Source: Candidatus Staskawiczbacteria bacterium | GTDB lineage: Bacteria > Patescibacteriota > Minisyncoccia > Minisyncoccales > Staskawiczbacteraceae | NCBI GenBank assembly: GCA_016196125.1 | Contig: JACPYG010000015.1 | Coordinates: 22,966 to 86,965 of the forward strand | Reading direction: 5' to 3' | DNA length: 64,000 bases | Part shown: in pieces, positions 6,023 to 56,306 of the stretch | Position numbering within the stretch: the first letter of the stretch is position 1 | Layout: each line of letters begins with the position of its first letter | Made by a program: the position numbers and the translations under genes | The notes under the pieces: model-generated | What the model was told of the DNA's origin: nothing | Database searches by the model: none | Seen by the model: the letters and a program-made list of their open reading frames with translations, nothing else

Positions 6023-6226
6023 ATTATTTTTTATTAGACCTGTTTCTTAATAATACATTACTATCTAATTTTATATCTTTTTACAATTTTTTTCAAATTA
6101 ATATCAATAAAAAAAACCTCTTCTGTTATGAAACAGATGAGGTTGATTTTTGTTGTACTTCTTTGCTTTGTTTATTTATTCTTATCCATTTATCGCCTTT
6201 CTTCACCAAAGAACAAAACCGTAATT

Positions 6227-6268
6227 TGGTGGGCCCAGAAGGAATCGGACCTTCTGCCTCTGTCTTAT
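6227..6268 (-). repeat. Orphan copy of the tRNA-Ile 3' half (anticodon position 35 to CCA), 41/42 identical to 6316-6357
   Basis: Direct comparison: TGGTGGGCCCAGAAGGAATCGGACCTTCTGCCTCTGTCTTAT versus ...CTTCTACCTC... in the full gene. Confidence 0.9.
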
Positions 6269-6315: not shown

Positions 6316-6390
6316 TGGTGGGCCCAGAAGGAATCGGACCTTCTACCTCTGTCTTATCAGGACAGCGTTCTACCAATGAACTATGGGCCC
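6316..6390 (-). tRNA. tRNA-Ile (anticodon GAU), CCA encoded
   Basis: Manual cloverleaf: GGGCCCA TA GTTC ATTGGTA GAAC G CTGTC CTGATAA GACAG AGGTA GAAGG TCCGATT CCTTC TGGGCCC A CCA. Leader and trailer form a further 12-bp perfect helix (6308-6319 / 6391-6402). Confidence 0.9.
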
Positions 6391-6405: not shown

Positions 6406-6438
6406 CAGGACAGCGTTCTACCAATGAACTATGGGCCC
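6406..6438 (-). repeat. Orphan copy of the tRNA-Ile 5' half (positions 1-34), 33/33 identical to 6358-6390
   Basis: CAGGACAGCGTTCTACCAATGAACTATGGGCCC occurs twice. Identity stops exactly at the first anticodon base. Confidence 0.9.
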
Positions 6439-10131: not shown

Positions 10132-11340
10132 TTATTTAAAAATATTTTCTAAGAATATTAAAGTGCGCTCAAAAGCCAAATTCGCAGCTTCTTTGCTGTA
10201 GGCCATATTGGTGCCGCTTCTGTTATTTGCAAATCCGTGGCCGACGTTGGGATATATAAAAATTTCGTGGCTGCCGTTTAAATTTTTTAATTTTGCCTGA
10301 AACTCTTTTACATTGTCAATCACTATTGAAGCATCTTTTTCCCCAAAATGACCCATGATGCTGGTTTTCATATGTTCAAAATCATCATTTGGATCAAATT
10401 GCCCATAATACATTACCGATGCCTTAGTGCCTAAATTATTGAGAGCCATTTGGTATGACCATCCTCCGCCAAAGCACCATCCTACCGAAGCAATTTTTTG
10501 CGGGTCAACATCATCTCTCTTTTTTAGATAATCTAAAGCTGATTTAAGATTCAAAAAGGCCTTTTCAGTATTATCTCTCACGCTCCCAGATAATTCTCTT
10601 GCTTTTGTTTGGTCGTCAGCGCTTTCACCGTTATACAAATCAACCGCCAAAGCAACATATCCATTTGCCGCAAATTGATTTGCGATTTCTTTTATATCAT
10701 TATTTAAGCCCCACCACTCATGAATTAAAATAACTGCGGGGTGATTTTTACCTTGGCCGGGATGGGCAACATACCCCTTTACATCATTGTAATACAAAAC
10801 GCTTTTATTAATTTCTATAAGATTATTGCCAGAAACTTTAAAATACCTCGAAACTCCGACATTTGGATTTGCGGTCATTGGCTCCCCGAGATTTCTATCT
10901 GCGTAGTTGACCACAATCTCTCCATTGTTAAGTTCTGTAGTTTGCGGAGCTATTCTGTCACCCAATAAAATACCATTGGTTCCCTGGTATCCATCACCGG
11001 TTTTGATGCCCGCTACAATGTAATAAAAAGTTCCACTGCCGCCGCCCTCCTGGGTAAGCAAAAATACAATATCTGATATGCCATCATTATTAAGGTCTCC
11101 TTCTGCTTCATTTCCAAAATATTTTGTAATTATCTTAGATGCGGAACCAGGAGCTGACTCTATTTCTGAAAAACCATTAACTAGTGTAACCTGCCTTCCA
11201 TCTATGATATAAGTTGAATCTTTATATCCCTTTTGAAGTCCCTTATTGCCCTGTTTTTCAGTATAAATATAATTATTCAACCAAAAAAAACCACTCGCAA
11301 TAATTATTATTATAACGATATATAGAATTATTTTTTTCAT
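10132..11340 (-). CDS. Membrane-anchored protein with a C-terminal dienelactone hydrolase domain
   Basis: N-terminal TM; C-terminal PAVILIHEWWGLN ... GWCFGGGWS ... YPNVGHGF (alpha/beta hydrolase DLH pattern). Confidence 0.7.
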   Translation of the reverse strand: MKKIILYIVIIIIIASGFFWLNNYIYTEKQGNKGLQKGYKDSTYIIDGRQVTLVNGFSEIESAPGSASKIITKYFGNEAEGDLNNDGISDIVFLLTQEGGGSGTFYYIVAGIKTGDGYQGTNGILLGDRIAPQTTELNNGEIVVNYADRNLGEPMTANPNVGVSRYFKVSGNNLIEINKSVLYYNDVKGYVAHPGQGKNHPAVILIHEWWGLNNDIKEIANQFAANGYVALAVDLYNGESADDQTKARELSGSVRDNTEKAFLNLKSALDYLKKRDDVDPQKIASVGWCFGGGWSYQMALNNLGTKASVMYYGQFDPNDDFEHMKTSIMGHFGEKDASIVIDNVKEFQAKLKNLNGSHEIFIYPNVGHGFANNRSGTNMAYSKEAANLAFERTLIFLENIFK

Positions 11341-12316: not shown

Positions 12317-12328
12317 ACTTTAATACTA

Positions 12329-12364
12329 ACAAAAAACTACCATAAAATAAAGGTGGTTTTTGTT
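12329..12364. terminator. Bidirectional-looking hairpin terminator
   Basis: AAAAAACTACC ATAAAATAAA GGTGGTTTTTG; A-run and T-run on either side. Confidence 0.45.
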
Positions 12365-12493
12365 CTGGACATGGCGCTCTCTCCTTCGCTAAAGCTATGT
12401 ACGGGCAAAGCAACTGGTATGACCTGACTGGAACTATATGCCGGAAATATCGGCTTTTTGTGACCCTCTCTGGTCACTCGATACTTCCGACCT
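12365..12493 (-). other. GC-rich ORF-free island between tRNA-Gln and the terminator (candidate ncRNA or cluster of palindromic elements)
   Basis: Hairpins GTGACC..GGTCAC (12450s-12470s) and GCCG..CGGC (12431-12446), plus a copy of the AGCTTTAGCGAAGGAG element at 12376-12406. Confidence 0.3.
12376..12406. repeat. Intergenic copy (inverted orientation) of the AGCTTTAGCG(A/G)AGG element
   Basis: Reverse complement GCCCGTACATAGCTTTAGCGAAGGAGAGAGC versus gatC TGCCCTTCCGTAGCTTTAGCGAAGGAGGGTTG. Confidence 0.75.
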
Positions 12494-12567
12494 TGGCTGC
12501 GGGACTTGGACTCGAACCAAGATAAACAGATCCAGAATCTGTTGTCCTACCATTAGACGATCCCGCA
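12494..12567 (-). tRNA. tRNA-Gln (anticodon CUG), CCA encoded
   Basis: Manual cloverleaf: TGCGGGA TC GTCT AATGGTA GGAC A ACAGA TTCTGGA TCTGT TTAT CTTGG TTCGAGT CCAAG TCCCGCA G CCA (U1:A72 as in tRNA-Gln). Confidence 0.85.
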
Positions 12568-19918: not shown

Positions 19919-20209
19919 TTAAAGTATGGCTTTTACTTTAATATAATCATCTTTTCTGTCTGGAAAAGCATTCATTATCTTTTCTGCCAAACTATGGTTT
20001 TTAGCCGCAATTTCATCTTTTCTTGCTTGCCCTTCCGTAGCTTTAGCGAAGGAGGGTTGTCTTTTTAATTTTGAAGTATTGGCCTTTTTAAGTAAATCAA
20101 AATAATCCAAAATTGCAGAAAGCTCTTTTTGCATTTTTTCGAGTTCTCCCTCCTTTAATTCCAATCTGGCCAGCTTTGCAATATGTTTTACTTCTTCTTT
20201 TGAAATCAT
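19919..20209 (-). CDS. gatC: Glu/Asp-tRNA amidotransferase subunit C
   Basis: MISKEEVKHIAKLARLEL... Start moved to ATG 20209; the ORF-track start at 20218 is TTG and overlaps the mreB stop. Confidence 0.85.
   Translation of the reverse strand: MISKEEVKHIAKLARLELKEGELEKMQKELSAILDYFDLLKKANTSKLKRQPSFAKATEGQARKDEIAAKNHSLAEKIMNAFPDRKDDYIKVKAIL
20036..20067. repeat. AGCTTTAGCGAAGGAG element in frame in gatC (peptide PSFAKATEGQ)
   Basis: TGCCCTTCCGTAGCTTTAGCGAAGGAGGGTTG. Related copies at 45864-45896 (rpsC) and 12376-12406 (intergenic). Confidence 0.75.
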
Positions 20210-20211
20210 AA

Positions 20212-21273
20212 TTACCAAGGCGGTTCTCCGCCTTCATCTTTCGACATAACATCAAATAATGTTCCTATATTTTCTAAAGCAATTCCAGCTCCTCTTACAA
20301 CAGCTGTTAACGGGTCGTCAATAATTTTACAGGGCATTTTTGTTTCCCTTGAAATTAAAACATCCAACCCTTTCAATAAAGAACCTCCACCGGATAAATA
20401 AATGCCGCCAGACATAACATCGGCCAATAATTCCGGGGGCGTTTCCTCGATTGTTGTTTTAATAGCCGCGATAATTTGTTTTACTGATTTATCTAAGGCG
20501 CGTTGGACATCGTCGTTAAAAATAACAACTTCTTCAGGGAGTCCGGTAACTAAATTTCTGCCTCGCATTGGCATTTCTTTTTTTTCTTTTAGATTTAGCG
20601 CCGAACCTATATTTATCTTAATTAATTCTGCCGTTCTTTCTCCAATTAATAATTTATATTCTTTCTGGGCAAACTGAACAATATCATCATTAAGCTTATC
20701 GCCGGCCACTCTTATGCTTTTATAAACAACAATTCCGCCAAGTGAAATTACCGCCACTTCTGTTGTGCCGCCGCCAATATCAACTATAAAGTTGCCGCCC
20801 GCTTCCTGAATTGGAAGTTTTGCTCCAATGGCAGAAGCCAAAGGCTCTTCAATTAAAAAAACTGTCTGGGCTCCGGCTGATTTGGCGGCGTCACGGACCG
20901 CCTTTCTTTCAACTTCTGTAACTCCGCAAGGAATGCCAATAATAACTCTTGGCAAATATCCCAAACCAAATATTTTTTTACTGGAAGCAGCCGATTTCTC
21001 AATAAAATATTTTAACATCTGTTCTGTCACTTCAAAGTCAGAAATAACACCGTTTACCAAAGGCCTTGTGGCTGTAATATAGGAAGGGGTTCGGCCTACC
21101 ATTTTTTTGGCTTCTTCTCCAATAGATAAAATTTGGCCTGTTTTATTGTTAATTGCCACCACGGATGGCTCATTAATAATTATTCCCCTATCTTTGACAT
21201 AAACCAAAGAATTGGCCGTACCCAGGTCAATAGCCATATCTATTGATAAAAAAGAAAATAGTTTTTTAAGCAT
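20212..21273 (-). CDS. mreB: Rod-shape protein MreB (paralogue 1)
   Basis: IDLGTANS, DIGGGTTEVAVISLGG and GGGSLLKGLD actin-fold motifs. Confidence 0.95.
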   Translation of the reverse strand: MLKKLFSFLSIDMAIDLGTANSLVYVKDRGIIINEPSVVAINNKTGQILSIGEEAKKMVGRTPSYITATRPLVNGVISDFEVTEQMLKYFIEKSAASSKKIFGLGYLPRVIIGIPCGVTEVERKAVRDAAKSAGAQTVFLIEEPLASAIGAKLPIQEAGGNFIVDIGGGTTEVAVISLGGIVVYKSIRVAGDKLNDDIVQFAQKEYKLLIGERTAELIKINIGSALNLKEKKEMPMRGRNLVTGLPEEVVIFNDDVQRALDKSVKQIIAAIKTTIEETPPELLADVMSGGIYLSGGGSLLKGLDVLISRETKMPCKIIDDPLTAVVRGAGIALENIGTLFDVMSKDEGGEPPW

Positions 21274-34712: not shown

Positions 34713-36386
34713 CTATTTTAATATTGCTTTAATTCTTCTGATGCCTGAACCTAAAGATTCTTCTTTTATAATTTTAAATGGTCCCCGCCCAGATTCTGGG
34801 CGAGGCTCGCCCACTTTTGAGTGGGCGGCTAACTCATCAGTGCTGTTAACATGGGAGCCTCCGCAGAATTCTTTGCTAAAAACATTCCCCTTTTTATCTT
34901 GTATAAAATATACCGATACCGTATTACCGTATTTTACACCAAATTCCATTTCTGCGCCAATTTTTTGGGCTTCTTCTTTTGGCATTTCTCTTTTTACCAC
35001 CAAAAACCCTTCTTTGATTTTTTCATTTACAATATCTTCAACTTTCTTTTTTTCTTCATCGGTAAGTTTCCTGTCAAAAGAAAAATCAATCCTCAAACGC
35101 TCTGAAGTTATATTGCTACCCCTTTGTTTTATTGTTTTTCCAAAAACTTCCTGCAAAGCGGCTAAAAGCAAATGATGAGCAGTATGCAATTTTATAGTTT
35201 CTGGCTTATCATCGGCCAATCCTCCCTTAAACATACCGGCCGAAGCAGTTTTGGACAATTCTTGATGTTTCTTTAATTCTTTATTAAATTCTTTTTCGTT
35301 AATATTTGGAAAAAATTCCTTAATAATATCATAGGGCAGGCCATAACTTTGGTATAACAGAAAAGTTGATTTTATGTCTGCATTTTTCACTTTCCCAGAT
35401 TCTGCAATACCTCTTTCTAATGTCTCCAGAAACTTCTTTTTTTCGCTATCAAACTCTGTATCTATAATACTCCATCGTAATTTATAATCATCTCCAATTT
35501 TTCTTATTAATTTTTCAAAAAAACTTACTTTACTAATAAATTCATAAGCCACTATTCGTCTAATTAATCTTCTTAATATATAACCTTGTTCCTTGTTTGA
35601 TGGCTTTACCCCATCAGAAATTAAAAATGAAATAGCTCTTGCATGGTCGGCAATGATTCTTTTCTTTCTCTCATCAAATTCTTCGGGAATTAATTTAATG
35701 ATCGGCTCAAACAAATCAGTTTCAAAAACAGTCTCTTTTTTTTGAACTACCATTGCCAATCTTTCCAAACCCATTCCGGTATCAACTCCAGGAGTTTCCA
35801 GTTTAGTTAATTTTTTATTTTTATCGCAAAAAAATTCATTAAAAACTATGTTCCATATTTCAATGCCGGAAACATAAATTTCGGTTGTAGGCCCGCAAGG
35901 CCCTTCTTCGCCTGTCGGTCCCCAAAAGTTATCAATTCCTTCTCTTTTTATTTTAATTTTAAGGTCTATCTCTTTCCAAATTTTTTCTGATTTCTCATCA
36001 GGAGGAACATTTTTGTCTCCCTTAAAAACAGTTACATAATCAATTTTCAATCCCAGTTCTTTTACAATAAATTCATGCGCCAATTTTATGGCTTCTTCCT
36101 TGAAATATCCGCCGAAAGAAAAGTTTCCCAACATTTCAAAAAAGGTCAAATGCCTCTCGTCTCCCACTTCATCAATATCCGATGTTCTTATGCATTTTTG
36201 GCAAGAAACGACATTTTTACCATAGGGAGATTCCTCGCCCAAATAATATGGCTTAAACTGCTGCATTCCGGCAGTAGTGAATAAAACAGATGAATCCGAT
36301 GGCAATAAAGACGAAGAAGGCACTATTTTGTGCCCATTTTTTTTAAAAAATTGTAAAAATTTTTGTCGTAATTCGTCTGATTGCAT
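34713..36386 (-). CDS. alaS: Alanyl-tRNA synthetase, minimal 557-aa form (catalytic plus editing core, no C-Ala domain)
   Basis: N-terminal FLQFFKKNGHKIVPSSSLLP, editing HTAHHLL and CGGSHV motifs. The protein ends shortly after GIRRIKA. Confidence 0.9.
   Translation of the reverse strand: MQSDELRQKFLQFFKKNGHKIVPSSSLLPSDSSVLFTTAGMQQFKPYYLGEESPYGKNVVSCQKCIRTSDIDEVGDERHLTFFEMLGNFSFGGYFKEEAIKLAHEFIVKELGLKIDYVTVFKGDKNVPPDEKSEKIWKEIDLKIKIKREGIDNFWGPTGEEGPCGPTTEIYVSGIEIWNIVFNEFFCDKNKKLTKLETPGVDTGMGLERLAMVVQKKETVFETDLFEPIIKLIPEEFDERKKRIIADHARAISFLISDGVKPSNKEQGYILRRLIRRIVAYEFISKVSFFEKLIRKIGDDYKLRWSIIDTEFDSEKKKFLETLERGIAESGKVKNADIKSTFLLYQSYGLPYDIIKEFFPNINEKEFNKELKKHQELSKTASAGMFKGGLADDKPETIKLHTAHHLLLAALQEVFGKTIKQRGSNITSERLRIDFSFDRKLTDEEKKKVEDIVNEKIKEGFLVVKREMPKEEAQKIGAEMEFGVKYGNTVSVYFIQDKKGNVFSKEFCGGSHVNSTDELAAHSKVGEPRPESGRGPFKIIKEESLGSGIRRIKAILK
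34781..34830. repeat. GC double-hairpin element in frame in alaS (AAHSKVGEPRPESGRG)
   Basis: GTCCCCGCCCAGATTCTGGGCGAGGCTCGCCCACTTTTGAGTGGGCGGCT; shares about 32 nt with 41671-41723 in rplR. Confidence 0.85.
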
Positions 36387-45523: not shown

Positions 45524-46207
45524 TTAATCAAATTTCTCTCCTTTATATATCCAAACTTTTACCTCAATAGCTCCATATGTACAATGAGCTTCTGTTTGAC
45601 TGTAATCAATATCTGCCCTAATGGTGTTTTTTGGCAATCTACCCTCTCTTAACCATTCTTTTCTGGCAATTTCAACTCCATTTAATCTTCCAGACAACTC
45701 TACTCTAACGCCTTTTGCTTCTTTGTTGCCCATAACTCTTTCTATGGATCTTTTCAAAACCTGACGAAATGGCACGCGCCTTTCAATTTGTTGAGCGGCC
45801 CATTGGGCCACAAGAGGAGCTGAAATCCATGGATTTTTTATTTCTTTAATTTCTATTTTTACCTCCCTGCCCGCCGAAGCTTTAGCGGAGGCGGGTCTTT
45901 TTGTACCACTAGTTTTTATCTCAAATATTTTTTTCTCTACCATCTGCCTTAAAACCTCTGCTCCGCTTCCTCCCCTGCCAATAATTATTCCCGGCCTGGC
46001 CGTTTCAATAATAATGCCCAGTTTACTGGCCGAATGCTCTATTTCAATATTAGCCACCGAAGCTTCCACTAACTTTTTTCTCAAAAAATCTTTAATTAGA
46101 AAATCTTCTTGAAGGAATTGAGACATTTTTTTGCCATAAAAACCCCTGATATTCCAATCTTCGGTTCCTCTTATCCTAAATGATTTTGGATGGACTTTAT
46201 GTGTCAT
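45524..46207 (-). CDS. rpsC: 30S ribosomal protein S3 (carries an internal GC-element insertion)
   Basis: MTHKVHPKSFRIRGTEDW ... KH domain ... RADIDYSQTEAHCTYGAIEVKVWIY. Confidence 0.95.
   Translation of the reverse strand: MTHKVHPKSFRIRGTEDWNIRGFYGKKMSQFLQEDFLIKDFLRKKLVEASVANIEIEHSASKLGIIIETARPGIIIGRGGSGAEVLRQMVEKKIFEIKTSGTKRPASAKASAGREVKIEIKEIKNPWISAPLVAQWAAQQIERRVPFRQVLKRSIERVMGNKEAKGVRVELSGRLNGVEIARKEWLREGRLPKNTIRADIDYSQTEAHCTYGAIEVKVWIYKGEKFD
45864..45896. repeat. AGCTTTAGCGGAGG element in frame in rpsC (RPASAKASAGRE)
   Basis: CCCTGCCCGCCGAAGCTTTAGCGGAGGCGGGTC; GC-rich patch in AT-rich coding sequence. Confidence 0.75.
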
Positions 46208-46232: not shown

Positions 46233-46688
46233 TTATTTTTTCGTTTTTATTTTTTTCTTAACTGATTTTTTCTGTTTTTTATATGTTGTTTCGGTTTTTG
46301 TTTCAGTTAATTTTTTTCCTCCAGACGGAGGATTGGCTGGACCCTCTTTTACAGGGCGAATCTCGCTTAAAACAATCGTTATGTGGGCGCTTCTTTTCAT
46401 TATGGGATAAGCTCTGCCGCGAGACATTGCGTGCCATCTTTTAAGAGTTGGGCCTTCGTCCACTGTGGTTTTTGATACATAAAGATTTTCTTCACCTATT
46501 TGAAAATCATGCTTTGCCGAAGCTGTGGCTGAATTCAAAAGTTTTAAAATCGGAGTAGCTGATTTTCTTGTGGCAAAAGAAAGCAAGACCTTGGCATCAA
46601 CTGCTGTTTTGCCTCTAATCAAATCAACAACCTCTCTGGCTTTTCTTGCTGTTACTCTTAAATGATTTAGCTTTACTGTTATTTCCAT
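46233..46688 (-). CDS. rplV: 50S ribosomal protein L22 with a Lys-rich C-terminal tail
   Basis: LRVTARKAREVVDLIRGK... Confidence 0.95.
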   Translation of the reverse strand: MEITVKLNHLRVTARKAREVVDLIRGKTAVDAKVLLSFATRKSATPILKLLNSATASAKHDFQIGEENLYVSKTTVDEGPTLKRWHAMSRGRAYPIMKRSAHITIVLSEIRPVKEGPANPPSGGKKLTETKTETTYKKQKKSVKKKIKTKK

Positions 46689-47146: not shown

Positions 47147-47970
47147 AACTTATTTGTCCACTTTTTTGTATTTCTTGTTTTTACCCCCAAGGCTGGTTTT
47201 CCCCATGGAGTTTTTGGATGTTTTAAACCAATTGGCTGTCTGCCCTCTCCTCCTCCATGCGGATGGTCAACTGGATTCATAGCCGAACCCCTAACATGAG
47301 GCCTTCTCCCTTTTAATCTTGATTTACCTGCCTTACCAACCCTATAATATCTGTTTTCTGGATTTGAAACCATTCCTATGGAAGCAAAGCACTCGCTTAT
47401 AAATTTTCTTACTTCGGTTGACGGCATTTTCAGGTTAACGTAATTTCCCTCCTGAGCTAAAACCTGAGCCGAAGATCCTGCAGATCTTACTAACTTTCCT
47501 CCTTTGCCAGGCTCTAATTCAATATTATAAACCATTGTTCCAACCGTTATATTTTTTAACTTTACTCTATTTCCTGGTTTTAAAGGAGCTTTCTCGGAAA
47601 ATATAATCTCATCTCCAACTTTCAGGTCTTGTGGCGCAATAATATATTGCCTATATTTGCTATGCCTGCCGGCAGGCATGCCTAAATATTCTATCAGAGC
47701 GATAAAGGCCGTTCTGTTTGGATCATATTCCAAAGCAACAACTCGGGCTGGCGAATCTATTCTTGTTTGTGAAAATTCAATCATTCTATAAAGTTTTTTT
47801 ACTCCGCCTCCTTTGTGTCTTACCGTAATCCTGCCAGAAGACTTCGATCTGCCAACATGTCTTTTTATATTTGCCAAAAGACTCTTTTCTGATTTATCTT
47901 TTGAAAGCAATGAAAAATCGATTCCTGTCATTCCTCTTCTGCCTGACGTTGTTGGTTTATAATGTTTCAT
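47122..47970 (-). CDS. rplB: 50S ribosomal protein L2
   Basis: EYDPNRTAFIAL ... GSAMNPVDHPHGGGEGR. Confidence 0.95.
   Translation of the reverse strand: MKHYKPTTSGRRGMTGIDFSLLSKDKSEKSLLANIKRHVGRSKSSGRITVRHKGGGVKKLYRMIEFSQTRIDSPARVVALEYDPNRTAFIALIEYLGMPAGRHSKYRQYIIAPQDLKVGDEIIFSEKAPLKPGNRVKLKNITVGTMVYNIELEPGKGGKLVRSAGSSAQVLAQEGNYVNLKMPSTEVRKFISECFASIGMVSNPENRYYRVGKAGKSRLKGRRPHVRGSAMNPVDHPHGGGEGRQPIGLKHPKTPWGKPALGVKTRNTKKWTNKFIIQRRKK
47662..47679. repeat. Perfect 18-bp palindrome ATGCCTGCCGGCAGGCAT in frame in rplB (GMPAGRHS)
   Basis: Read directly from the sequence. Confidence 0.95.
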
Positions 47971-55517: not shown

Positions 55518-55615
55518 AAGTGGAAATAATAATATTTTTCAACGTCCGCCCTGCCTGCCGGCAGGCAGGCAAACCCACGGCCAGCCCGAATTGAAAAATA
55601 TTATTATTTCCACTT
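55518..55615. repeat. MITE-like hairpin element with the nested 20-bp palindrome (upstream of rpmB)
   Basis: 25-bp perfect arms AAGTGGAAATAATAATATTTTTCAA / TTGAAAAATATTATTATTTCCACTT. Core CGTCCGCC CCTGCCTGCCGGCAGGCAGG CAAACCCACGGCCAGCCCGAA. Confidence 0.9.
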
Positions 55616-56206: not shown

Positions 56207-56306
56207 GGTCAGAAAATAAAAATATTTTTCAACGCCCGCCCTGCCTGCCGGCAGGCAGGCAAACCCACGACCAGCCCGAATTGAAAAATATTTTTATTTT
56301 CTGACC
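56207..56306. repeat. MITE-like hairpin element with the nested 20-bp palindrome (yraN-comM spacer)
   Basis: 26-bp perfect arms GGTCAGAAAATAAAAATATTTTTCAA / TTGAAAAATATTTTTATTTTCTGACC. Core identical to 55543-55590 except for 2 nt. Confidence 0.9.

Follow-up and report, generated by a model that had tools for sequence, protein, structure and literature searches.

A 64-kb stretch of a Candidatus Staskawiczbacteria genome (the window, that is, the whole of the DNA that was analyzed; 35% GC overall) carries three copies of a 30-nt, GC-rich palindromic repeat, one inside rpsC, the gene for ribosomal protein uS3 (S3), one inside gatC, the gene for subunit C of the Asp/Glu-tRNA amidotransferase, and one in an intergenic spacer. 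All three are copies of one repeat, chance being excluded as the source of their similarity. The repeat family is not peculiar to the window's genome and is also found in other Patescibacteria, in at least one Acidobacteriota contig and in viral contigs. With moderate confidence, we regard the element as a small palindromic repeat akin to the repetitive extragenic palindromes (REP) and the Rickettsia palindromic elements (RPE), behaving as selfish, probably mobile DNA. What we rate as new is a family that is REP-like but differs in its tag, that has unusually many in-frame copies in core translation genes and that is distributed across phyla. The host assignment of the window to Candidatus Staskawiczbacteria (Parcubacteria/Patescibacteria) comes from its S3 and GatC proteins.

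Three copies of one structured repeat

In a motif search of the window, the core AGCTTTAGCGRAGG matches exactly at 45878-45891(+), 20039-20052(+) and 12383-12396(−), and the full 30-nt units occupy 45866-45895(+), 20027-20056(+) and 12379-12408(−). The initial annotation had described such a core in rpsC, gatC and an intergenic island, together with the peptides and the common frame of the two coding copies. Indeed, the core is exact at all three sites and the open reading frames (ORFs) read as described, the rpsC and gatC copies having the same orientation and the same reading frame. The annotation had also set significance against a composition-matched background as the test of the similarity. 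Among 14-mers of at least 50% GC, the requirement of three copies at 13-of-14 matches yields four repeat families in the real window and none in any of 50 shuffles (25 composition-preserving in 20-nt blocks and 25 global). Furthermore, the gatC 30-mer and the intergenic copy are identical at 26/30 positions, compared with 21/30 for the best of 200 local shuffles. A scan with the covariance model R1, which was built on 90 sequences, returns exactly three members from the window, two of them intragenic, in agreement with the proposed GC-rich, hairpin-forming family with in-frame copies and a non-coding copy. A fourth match to the core, at 10463-10476(−) with two mismatches, is in our view due to chance; it lies inside a G-W-C-F-G-G-G hydrolase-type motif and is missed by the family model.

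The unit reads C[CT]TG-CCC[GT]CC-G[AT]A-GC-TTTA-GC-G[AG]A-GG[CA]GGG and consists of an unpaired 5′ tag (CYTG), a 6-bp stem (CCCKCC/GGMGGG), a 3×3 internal loop (GWA/GRA), an inner GC/GC stem and an apex. The 22-nt search pattern CCGWAGCTTTAGCGRAGGMGGG holds ~41 bits by our estimate, so that about one chance match is expected; exact matches were found in at least 120 metagenome stretches, and both this abundance and the taxonomic range are lower bounds. In a position matrix of 132 distinct copies, conservation reaches leftward beyond the search pattern, over C[CT]TGCCC[GT], and ends abruptly past position 30, positions 31 onward being at background. Positions 8 and 27, the former unconstrained by the pattern, form a G-C pair in 60 of these copies and a T-A pair in 53, and are mismatched in 19. 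In a model-fitted alignment of 52 matches, about half of whose rows were selected by the exact pattern, 96.5% of stem cells are paired and five of the eight pairs show compensatory double changes, values that none of 500 shuffles reaches. The stems of different copies had been said to differ while staying complementary, and these exchanges bear this out, although the gatC stem, first given as CCTTC/GAAGG, has to be corrected to CCCT(T)CC/GGAGGG. The accompanying statement that the center is conserved holds only locally; across the family, no part varies more than the apical loop (TTTA, CTTG, or longer inserts that are self-complementary), and it is the facing triplets G-W-A and G-R-A of the internal loop and the 5′ tag that are conserved, the triplets and the inner GC/GC stem being nearly invariant.

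The rpsC, gatC and intergenic sites

The rpsC copy (CCTGCCCGCCGAAGCTTTAGCGGAGGCGGG; 45866..45895, + strand; 47.6 bits with R1) is intact and lies antisense inside rpsC (45524..46207, − strand), which encodes a uS3 protein of 227 residues, recognized from its ORF and from PDB S3 chains (E about 1e-52); homologues of the window S3 carry the name S3 of Candidatus Staskawiczbacteria. The translation around the element reads TKRPASAKASAGRE, and the element itself encodes RPASAKASAG. Folded as RNA, this copy forms a 7-bp stem, a 3×3 loop, 2 bp and a tetraloop (−17 kcal/mol). Relative to solved S3 structures and to Escherichia coli S3, the window protein has 18 additional residues in the loop that follows the KH domain (query residues about 91-113), which corrects the roughly 20 given at first; the part owed to the element is exactly 10 residues (30 nt), as measured against the closest relatives. 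These are 217 residues long, ~89% identical in amino acid sequence (alignment A1), and lack exactly RPASAKASAG. The filled site of the window (ACAAAAAGA/CCCGCCTCCGCTAAAGCTTCGGCGGGCAGG/GAGGTA) differs from the empty site of the relative L003 (protein P0002; ACAAAAAGA/GAAATA) by exactly AAAAGA/CCCGCC...GGGCAGG/GAG, and the ORF stays intact. Furthermore, the edges of this indel are the consensus edges of the independent 132-copy position matrix. An ortholog indel comparison, suggested with the initial annotation, thus gives a clean 30-nt indel for the rpsC copy and, as described below, no net insertion for the gatC copy. We rejected AGA/AGG as a target duplication; it borders the core in several S3 genes, but gatC and the family as a whole do not show it.

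In loop-masked, bootstrapped neighbor-joining trees, the window S3 joins the element-less 217-residue clade in 98% of replicates, and this clade is monophyletic without the window S3 in only 1%. This grouping implies either that rpsC gained its copy secondarily or that the element was repeatedly and precisely lost in the clade. A GC-rich palindrome is present at the same S3 codon in more distant lineages (L001, L004 and L222). Between the window rpsC and that of L222, whose S3 proteins are 77% identical, all nine core codons are identical, compared with 80 of 157 same-amino-acid codons elsewhere in the gene, and the GC content at third codon positions (GC3) is 0.67 in the element and 0.29 in the remainder of rpsC. 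This synonymous conservation is compatible with two readings: a conserved master sequence that was inserted recently and independently, or a hairpin under selection.

A survey of 120 S3 homologues showed intact loop forms (KRPASAKASAGRE and KPASAKASAGE), variants (KRPISAKAPAGRD and KPSSAKATAGE), a shortened form (KRPASGRE) and an AT-drifted, apparently decayed form (KKFALVKNLAVRE beside KRPASAAKAPAGRE) that is relic-like. The length variability of the region among these homologues suggests that the S3 insert lies in a surface loop; an AlphaFold model of S3, with a mean predicted local distance difference test score of 50.7, is too poor to place it. The S3 elements of L221 and L223 have a second small hairpin (CCCAAAGGG, peptide RPKGYP/VPKGNP) nested in the apex. 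This small hairpin, of the form (A)GACCCAAAGGGTAC and encoding RPKGYP/RPKGVA/VPKGNP, lies in the S3 genes L221:1501-2187 and L223:1215-1898, recurs in the GatC loop of P0142, P0153, P0171, P0183 and P0210, and appears to be a further in-frame element family.

The gatC copy is also intact (TTGCCCTTCCGTAGCTTTAGCGAAGGAGGG; 20027..20056, + strand; 46.3 bits with R1), belongs to the T-A subfamily and has a 1-nt bulge. It lies antisense inside gatC (19919..20218, − strand, from the ORF and PDB GatC chains; 19919..20209, or 96 residues, with the database start) and encodes PSFAKATEGQ, the surrounding translation reading RQPSFAKATEGQ; an identical (100%) protein, P0121, is named GatC. The protein has an ordinary length, and the element fills its variable central loop. 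In the relative L086, whose GatC is 78% identical, the same 36 nt are present with one difference while the surrounding codons have diverged, and L085 has a drifted version (CCC GAC TTC ACT AAA GTT ACG GCG AGC). Many other GatC proteins of the group have PAFAKASAGE, PASAKASAW and similar peptides at the element site. As in rpsC, GC3 is raised, at 0.56 in the element and 0.23 in the remainder of the gene. Judged from these sequence comparisons, the gatC copy is inherited within the clade, with no net insertion.

The third copy (TTGCCCGTACATAGCTTTAGCGAAGGAGAG; 12379..12408, − strand), recovered by the covariance model, is degenerate and non-coding; of the four positions at which it departs from the gatC copy, three are in the left arm. 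Its fold is no better than that of shuffles (z = +0.75), the hairpin having been lost, and we conclude that it is a decayed relic. It lies 86-115 nt downstream of a tRNA-Gln(CTG) gene (12494..12567, − strand; ARAGORN and Rfam), in a 177-nt spacer before the next ORF, co-directional with the flanking genes and in the opposite chromosome orientation to the coding copies. The spacer is not conserved in the relative L085. An SRP-like RNA (signal recognition particle RNA) suspected in it, at 12317-12493, was rejected, since Rfam returned only noise there at permissive thresholds. Upstream of tRNA-Gln in L085 (L085:16220-16450), a tRNA-Gln-like sequence is interrupted by stretches with repeated GAGAGTCATCAGACTCGA motifs and may be a disrupted or intron-bearing tRNA copy.

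Genomic contexts and comparison with known repeats

Contigs that bear copies span 33-72% GC. One of them, L203 (63% GC), belongs to the Vicinamibacterales (Acidobacteriota), its GlnRS being 84% identical to named proteins, so the family is not confined to Patescibacteria; the cross-phylum claim rests on this one identified contig together with the GC range. The element is carried by 14 IMG/VR viral contigs, one of which has six copies in 2.3 kb, and R1 detects extra copies and closely spaced inverted pairs in metagenomic and viral contigs (L209, L212, L213 and L214), as well as about a dozen copies in 1.3 Mb of Patescibacteria S10-operon loci. In three related GTDB loci (L031, L036 and L064) the element forms part of the C-terminal tail of uL22, always encodes P-A/S-S/F-A-K-A-S/T-A-G and leaves the ORF intact, and it is also found in dozens of other ORFs. 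In the window itself, the uL22 tail encoded by rplV (46233..46688, − strand) has a GC island at 46321-46344 that reads PVKEGPANPPSGGKK and occupies the region where other lineages carry the 30-nt element.

ORF statistics were taken from contigs of ≤45% GC, GC-rich contigs being omitted because ORF calls are unreliable there. In this set, 25 of 59 copies (42%) lie inside ORFs of at least 150 residues, compared with 74% of random positions. The 25 coding copies are read as PxxAKAxxG (18), xALAxxG (6), PPxLKLR (1) and RSFSxGG (0), the remaining two of the six frames containing stop codons, and 19 of them are antisense and 6 sense. The check for frames that would give stop codons, suggested with the initial annotation, thus shows that one of the four open frames is strongly preferred, as is the antisense orientation. 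Together, ORF depletion and frame bias are signs of selection against harmful insertions.

In the same contigs, a T-run follows just past the top-strand hairpin in 14 of 34 non-coding copies, compared with 2 of 34 on the other strand. Although this T-run enrichment is real, we rejected a terminator role for the non-coding copies, since their placement with respect to neighboring ORFs is inconsistent: three copies lie 3′ of co-directional genes and eight 3′ of convergent genes. A simple terminator scan calls neither the rpsC nor the gatC site. At both, hairpin and T-run are on the antisense strand, and the T-run consists of host Lys/Arg codons and pre-exists in the empty site; the intergenic copy of the window has neither hairpin nor T-run.

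Several copies are found beside genes for structured RNAs. The element starts 3-8 nt past the 3′ end of the transfer-messenger RNA (tmRNA) gene in unrelated contigs (L097:11-434, L099:1962-2361 and L115:5854-5883, the adjacency in L115 being deduced from a shared left flank); the junction reads ...CTCCACC/TTCGCCCTCCG and is followed by a T-run in two of the three contigs, like an ssrA terminator. Other copies come after, between or abutting tRNA genes, as seen with Rfam in L127, L164 and L206 and as suggested by the flanks in L204, L142 and L156. At L176:9589-9796, in a dense tRNA cluster, a 104-nt perfect tandem duplication includes, besides the element, another GC motif and a 5′ fragment (13 nt) of the tRNA gene next to it. 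CRISPR-like or tandem arrays were considered for L104 and L176 and rejected, as both are single local duplications that include the flanks.

REP families have an unpaired terminal tetranucleotide, alternative complementary stem residues, trinucleotides, GC-flanked variable loops, dimers and intragenic copies (Di Nocera et al., 2013; PMC3733652). The element shares much of this design with REPs of the GTAG-3/GTAG-14 type (PMC3733652): as a GC-rich imperfect palindrome of 30 nt it lies within their 20-40 bp range, it carries an unpaired tetranucleotide tag at one end of its GC-rich stem and divides into sub-families whose stem residues are exchanged for other complementary ones; trinucleotides that do not pair separate the stem from a GC-flanked loop that varies in length; inverted dimers are found occasionally, copies also lie within genes, and some REP families are likewise common to distant taxa. 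It differs in its tag (CYTG rather than GTAG/CGTC) and in its hosts (Patescibacteria, at least one Acidobacteriota contig and viral contigs), and some 40% of its copies in AT-rich contigs are intragenic. GTAG occurs in the element only internally, in the W=T variant (CCGTAGC), with GAAG instead in about half of the copies. REPs are further associated with RAYT/TnpAREP (PMC8266576), and no RAYT/Y1 enzyme was seen in 2.7 Mb of loci with an IS200 TnpA query.

The RPEs, as far as Ogata et al. (2000/2002) are cited in PMC3733652, comprise RPE-1 of 100-150 bp and the CGTC-tagged REPs RPE-4 and RPE-6. As summarized there, they resemble the element as in-frame palindromes in still-functional genes of a small AT-rich genome, at tolerated peptide positions, with copies also in RNA genes and intergenic DNA. 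An in-frame palindrome in an ORF that is intact relative to orthologues, which characterizes RPEs, is found in rpsC relative to L003 and in the uL22 tails. Going by the same source, the RPEs are confined to Rickettsia and are set apart by unit length and host phylum, whereas the element crosses phyla. The GC clusters of yeast mitochondria, which include in-frame rps3/VAR1 insertions (PMC4464245), are likewise short GC-rich palindromes in a very AT-rich genome, mostly non-coding, that occur in frame in a uS3 homologue and change its length between strains; they are organellar, belong to other sequence classes, are thought to spread by recombination or gene conversion and have no sequence relation to the element.

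[quoted passage not shown] They measure 70-300 bp and have terminal inverted repeats and target-site duplications, whereas the element is 30 nt long with no visible duplication, including at the filled and empty S3 sites. Rho-independent terminators share the GC hairpin that is often followed by a T-run, although the coding copies carry both on the antisense strand. DNA uptake sequences (DUS of Neisseria) and uptake signal sequences (USS of Haemophilus) form inverted pairs, are species-specific and occur about once per kb. Like the element, they are fixed sequences at many gene ends and sometimes within genes in preferred frames; unlike them, the element has a low density and a sequence that is shared between phyla.

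At gathering and permissive thresholds alike, no Rfam family matches the element, whether in the window or in 21 loci, and 7.3 Gb of plasmids of cultured bacteria gave only chance-level partial matches, in Thermus and Ralstonia (E 0.07 or worse). Full-text literature searches, whose coverage lies outside subscription journals, for the core DNA, four encoded peptides and palindromic repeats of the candidate phyla radiation (CPR), Parcubacteria or Patescibacteria returned nothing relevant.

The window has other GC palindromes and repeats. A second family is the perfect palindrome GCCTGCCGGCAGGC, with copies at 687, 24682, 37486, 47664, 50215, 55553 and 56243. It is usually preceded by C[CT]T and hence starts with the same CYTGCC as the 30-nt element. 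Its copy at 47664 lies in rplB and encodes GMPAGRH; at this place the sequence of L003 is AT-rich, unrelated and equally long, and L004 is 7 residues shorter. A third GC palindrome, GGGCGAGGCTCGCCC, has two copies, at 34798 and 41690, the latter followed by a second hairpin, GCCTTTTTAGGC. Long near-perfect palindromes of MITE-like look occupy the ribosomal-protein operon spacers that we read from the ORFs as L24-L5 (43871-43944) and S8-L6 (42495-42610), with arms GCGGAAATAAGGATATTTTTCAA...TTGAAAAATATCCTTATTTCCGC around a GC-rich center GGGCTGGCCGTGGGTTTGGCGGGCG; related pieces lie at about 55537-55591 and 56226-56279, and the copies at 42.5, 55.5 and 56.2 kb have extra GC hairpins nested in the center. 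Finally, the 3′ half of tRNA-Ile (6316-6390) is repeated about 50 nt downstream and a 15-nt D/anticodon piece lies just upstream (6223-6267, 6406-6420), a partial duplication of the kind left by integrating elements.

Proposed origin and spread of the family

We propose that the element is, now or recently, a non-autonomous selfish element that would move as a 30-nt unit, with a trans-acting enzyme probably recognizing it in the form of a single-stranded DNA hairpin, by analogy with REP/RAYT or with IS200/IS605 ends (PMC8266576). Because the unit length is a multiple of three and four of the six frames are free of stop codons, an insertion only adds about 10 residues in a loop or tail. The added residues, small or hydrophilic (P-A/S-S/F-A-K-A-S/T-A/E-G), would be close to neutral and hence survivable even in the essential uS3, uL22 and GatC. 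Copies would then be inherited and either decay under AT pressure or be deleted, and some intergenic copies beside T-runs may come to serve as terminators. The decay series in gatC of L085 and in the drifted S3 loops speaks for this course of events, together with the 30-nt unit of the rpsC indel, the secondary gain of that copy, the many unrelated hosts, the abundance and range of the family, the compensatory changes in the hairpin, the signs of selection against harmful insertions and the REP-like architecture. The data show family membership, where the unit begins and ends, covariation in the hairpin, filled and empty S3 sites, the range of contexts and the frame bias; mobility itself, recognition as a single-stranded hairpin and neutrality of the peptide are inferred. 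For the window, the history would be that of a secondary gain in rpsC, an older, inherited copy in gatC and a decayed relic downstream of tRNA-Gln.

Several observations weigh against selfish mobility. The copy number in the window's genome is low, at three in 64 kb, there is only one clean filled/empty pair (S3), and no target-site duplication is visible. The tag is C[CT]TG and not GTAG/CGTC. A tblastn search of the 2.7 Mb of loci with the IS200 TnpA query found nothing convincing, the single weak match (L135, E 0.36) not being near the element, and a Pfam scan around the densest viral cluster (L213) found no transposase or HUH domain. It is because of this tag, the lack of a transposase among these results and the lack of a target duplication that we do not file the element as a REP proper. 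Furthermore, the S3 pattern could also have come about if the element was precisely lost several times, or if gene conversion moved short patches from lineage to lineage. Between deeply diverged orthologues, synonymous positions have changed less inside the element than in the remainder of the gene, which would also fit a selected function.

Such a function is the main rival, although we judge it unlikely. In this case the repeat would be a structured nucleic-acid motif under selection and not mobile, either an RNA hairpin (a terminator, stabilizer, or processing or protein-binding site) or a DNA hairpin to which a host factor binds, and the coding copies would mark places where the motif is needed or tolerated. 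It would account for purine internal-loop triplets that are conserved while the stems covary, for synonymous positions retained where the other codons of the orthologues diverged, for the strand bias of the T-runs next to non-coding copies and for the copies immediately 3′ of tmRNA or tRNA genes in L097, L099, L115 and L204. It is harder to reconcile with copies within ORFs that have either orientation and use three of the four stop-free frames, with the inconsistent placement of the non-coding copies relative to genes, and with the closest S3 relatives doing without the element and decayed copies being common. Hairpins and T-runs that are antisense in rpsC and gatC, the T-run being already there in the empty site, also argue against it, as do the negative terminator scan at these two genes and the lack of an Rfam family.

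Homologous recombination, by which short gene-conversion patches taken up as DNA from other Patescibacteria would have spread an old loop variant in S3 and GatC, is quite improbable as the explanation, in place of transposition, of the distribution in these two proteins. Such exchange would explain why several lineages have the same S3 site occupied, why the window and L222 share an identical 27-nt core in spite of the divergence of their proteins, and why the residue past the insert is V in the window and several element-bearing S3s and I in the element-less clade. However, the upstream part of the window loop, FEIKTSGTK, is of the element-less-clade type, so that any converted tract would need to match the 30-nt unit almost exactly, and recombination cannot explain the same unit in unrelated genes, intergenic sites, viral contigs and another phylum. 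Short-patch gene conversion may contribute to the S3 pattern but cannot account for the whole family. Most improbable by far is that the similarity arose at the peptide level, through a flexible Ala/Lys/Gly-rich linker favored in exposed loops, or by pure chance. The encoded peptides are indeed alike, 18 of the 25 coding copies share one frame and the host sites are variable loops or tails; against this, third positions of codons are conserved and rich in GC, the genome's GC3 being 0.23-0.29, a non-coding copy is identical at 26/30 positions, other frames and intergenic copies are common, and shuffles never reproduce the match. Codon identity and raised GC3 in the element rule out a purely peptide-level explanation.

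The reading of a REP/RPE-like selfish repeat can be taken further, to a proposal that we find possible though doubtful. The element would then belong to an undescribed cross-phylum superfamily of structure-specific hairpin elements, defined by the CYTG tag and the GWA/GRA loop and served by a mobilizing or binding protein of its own, which would repeatedly have hit the same uS3 codon as well as uL22 and GatC, spread among Patescibacteria, Acidobacteriota and phages, and rewritten surface loops in frame; the other CYTGCC palindrome families of the window would be branches of it.

If the element is indeed selfish, very small and supposedly streamlined genomes hold active or recently active hairpin DNA that rewrites, in frame, surface loops of proteins at the core of translation, something so far documented mainly for Rickettsia and for yeast mitochondrial VAR1. 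Recurring short peptides from GC-rich sequence, such as PASAKASAG, SFSEGG, EALAKAG and LKLRRA, would then be expected in the predicted proteomes of uncultured bacteria, where alignments, marker-gene phylogenies and ORF calls can be led astray by them. A structure so sharply defined, with a fixed tag and internal loop and free stems and apex, would make a search for the recognizing enzyme directly testable, and a near-identical 30-nt unit across organisms of 33-72% GC would provide a tractable marker for horizontal exchange.

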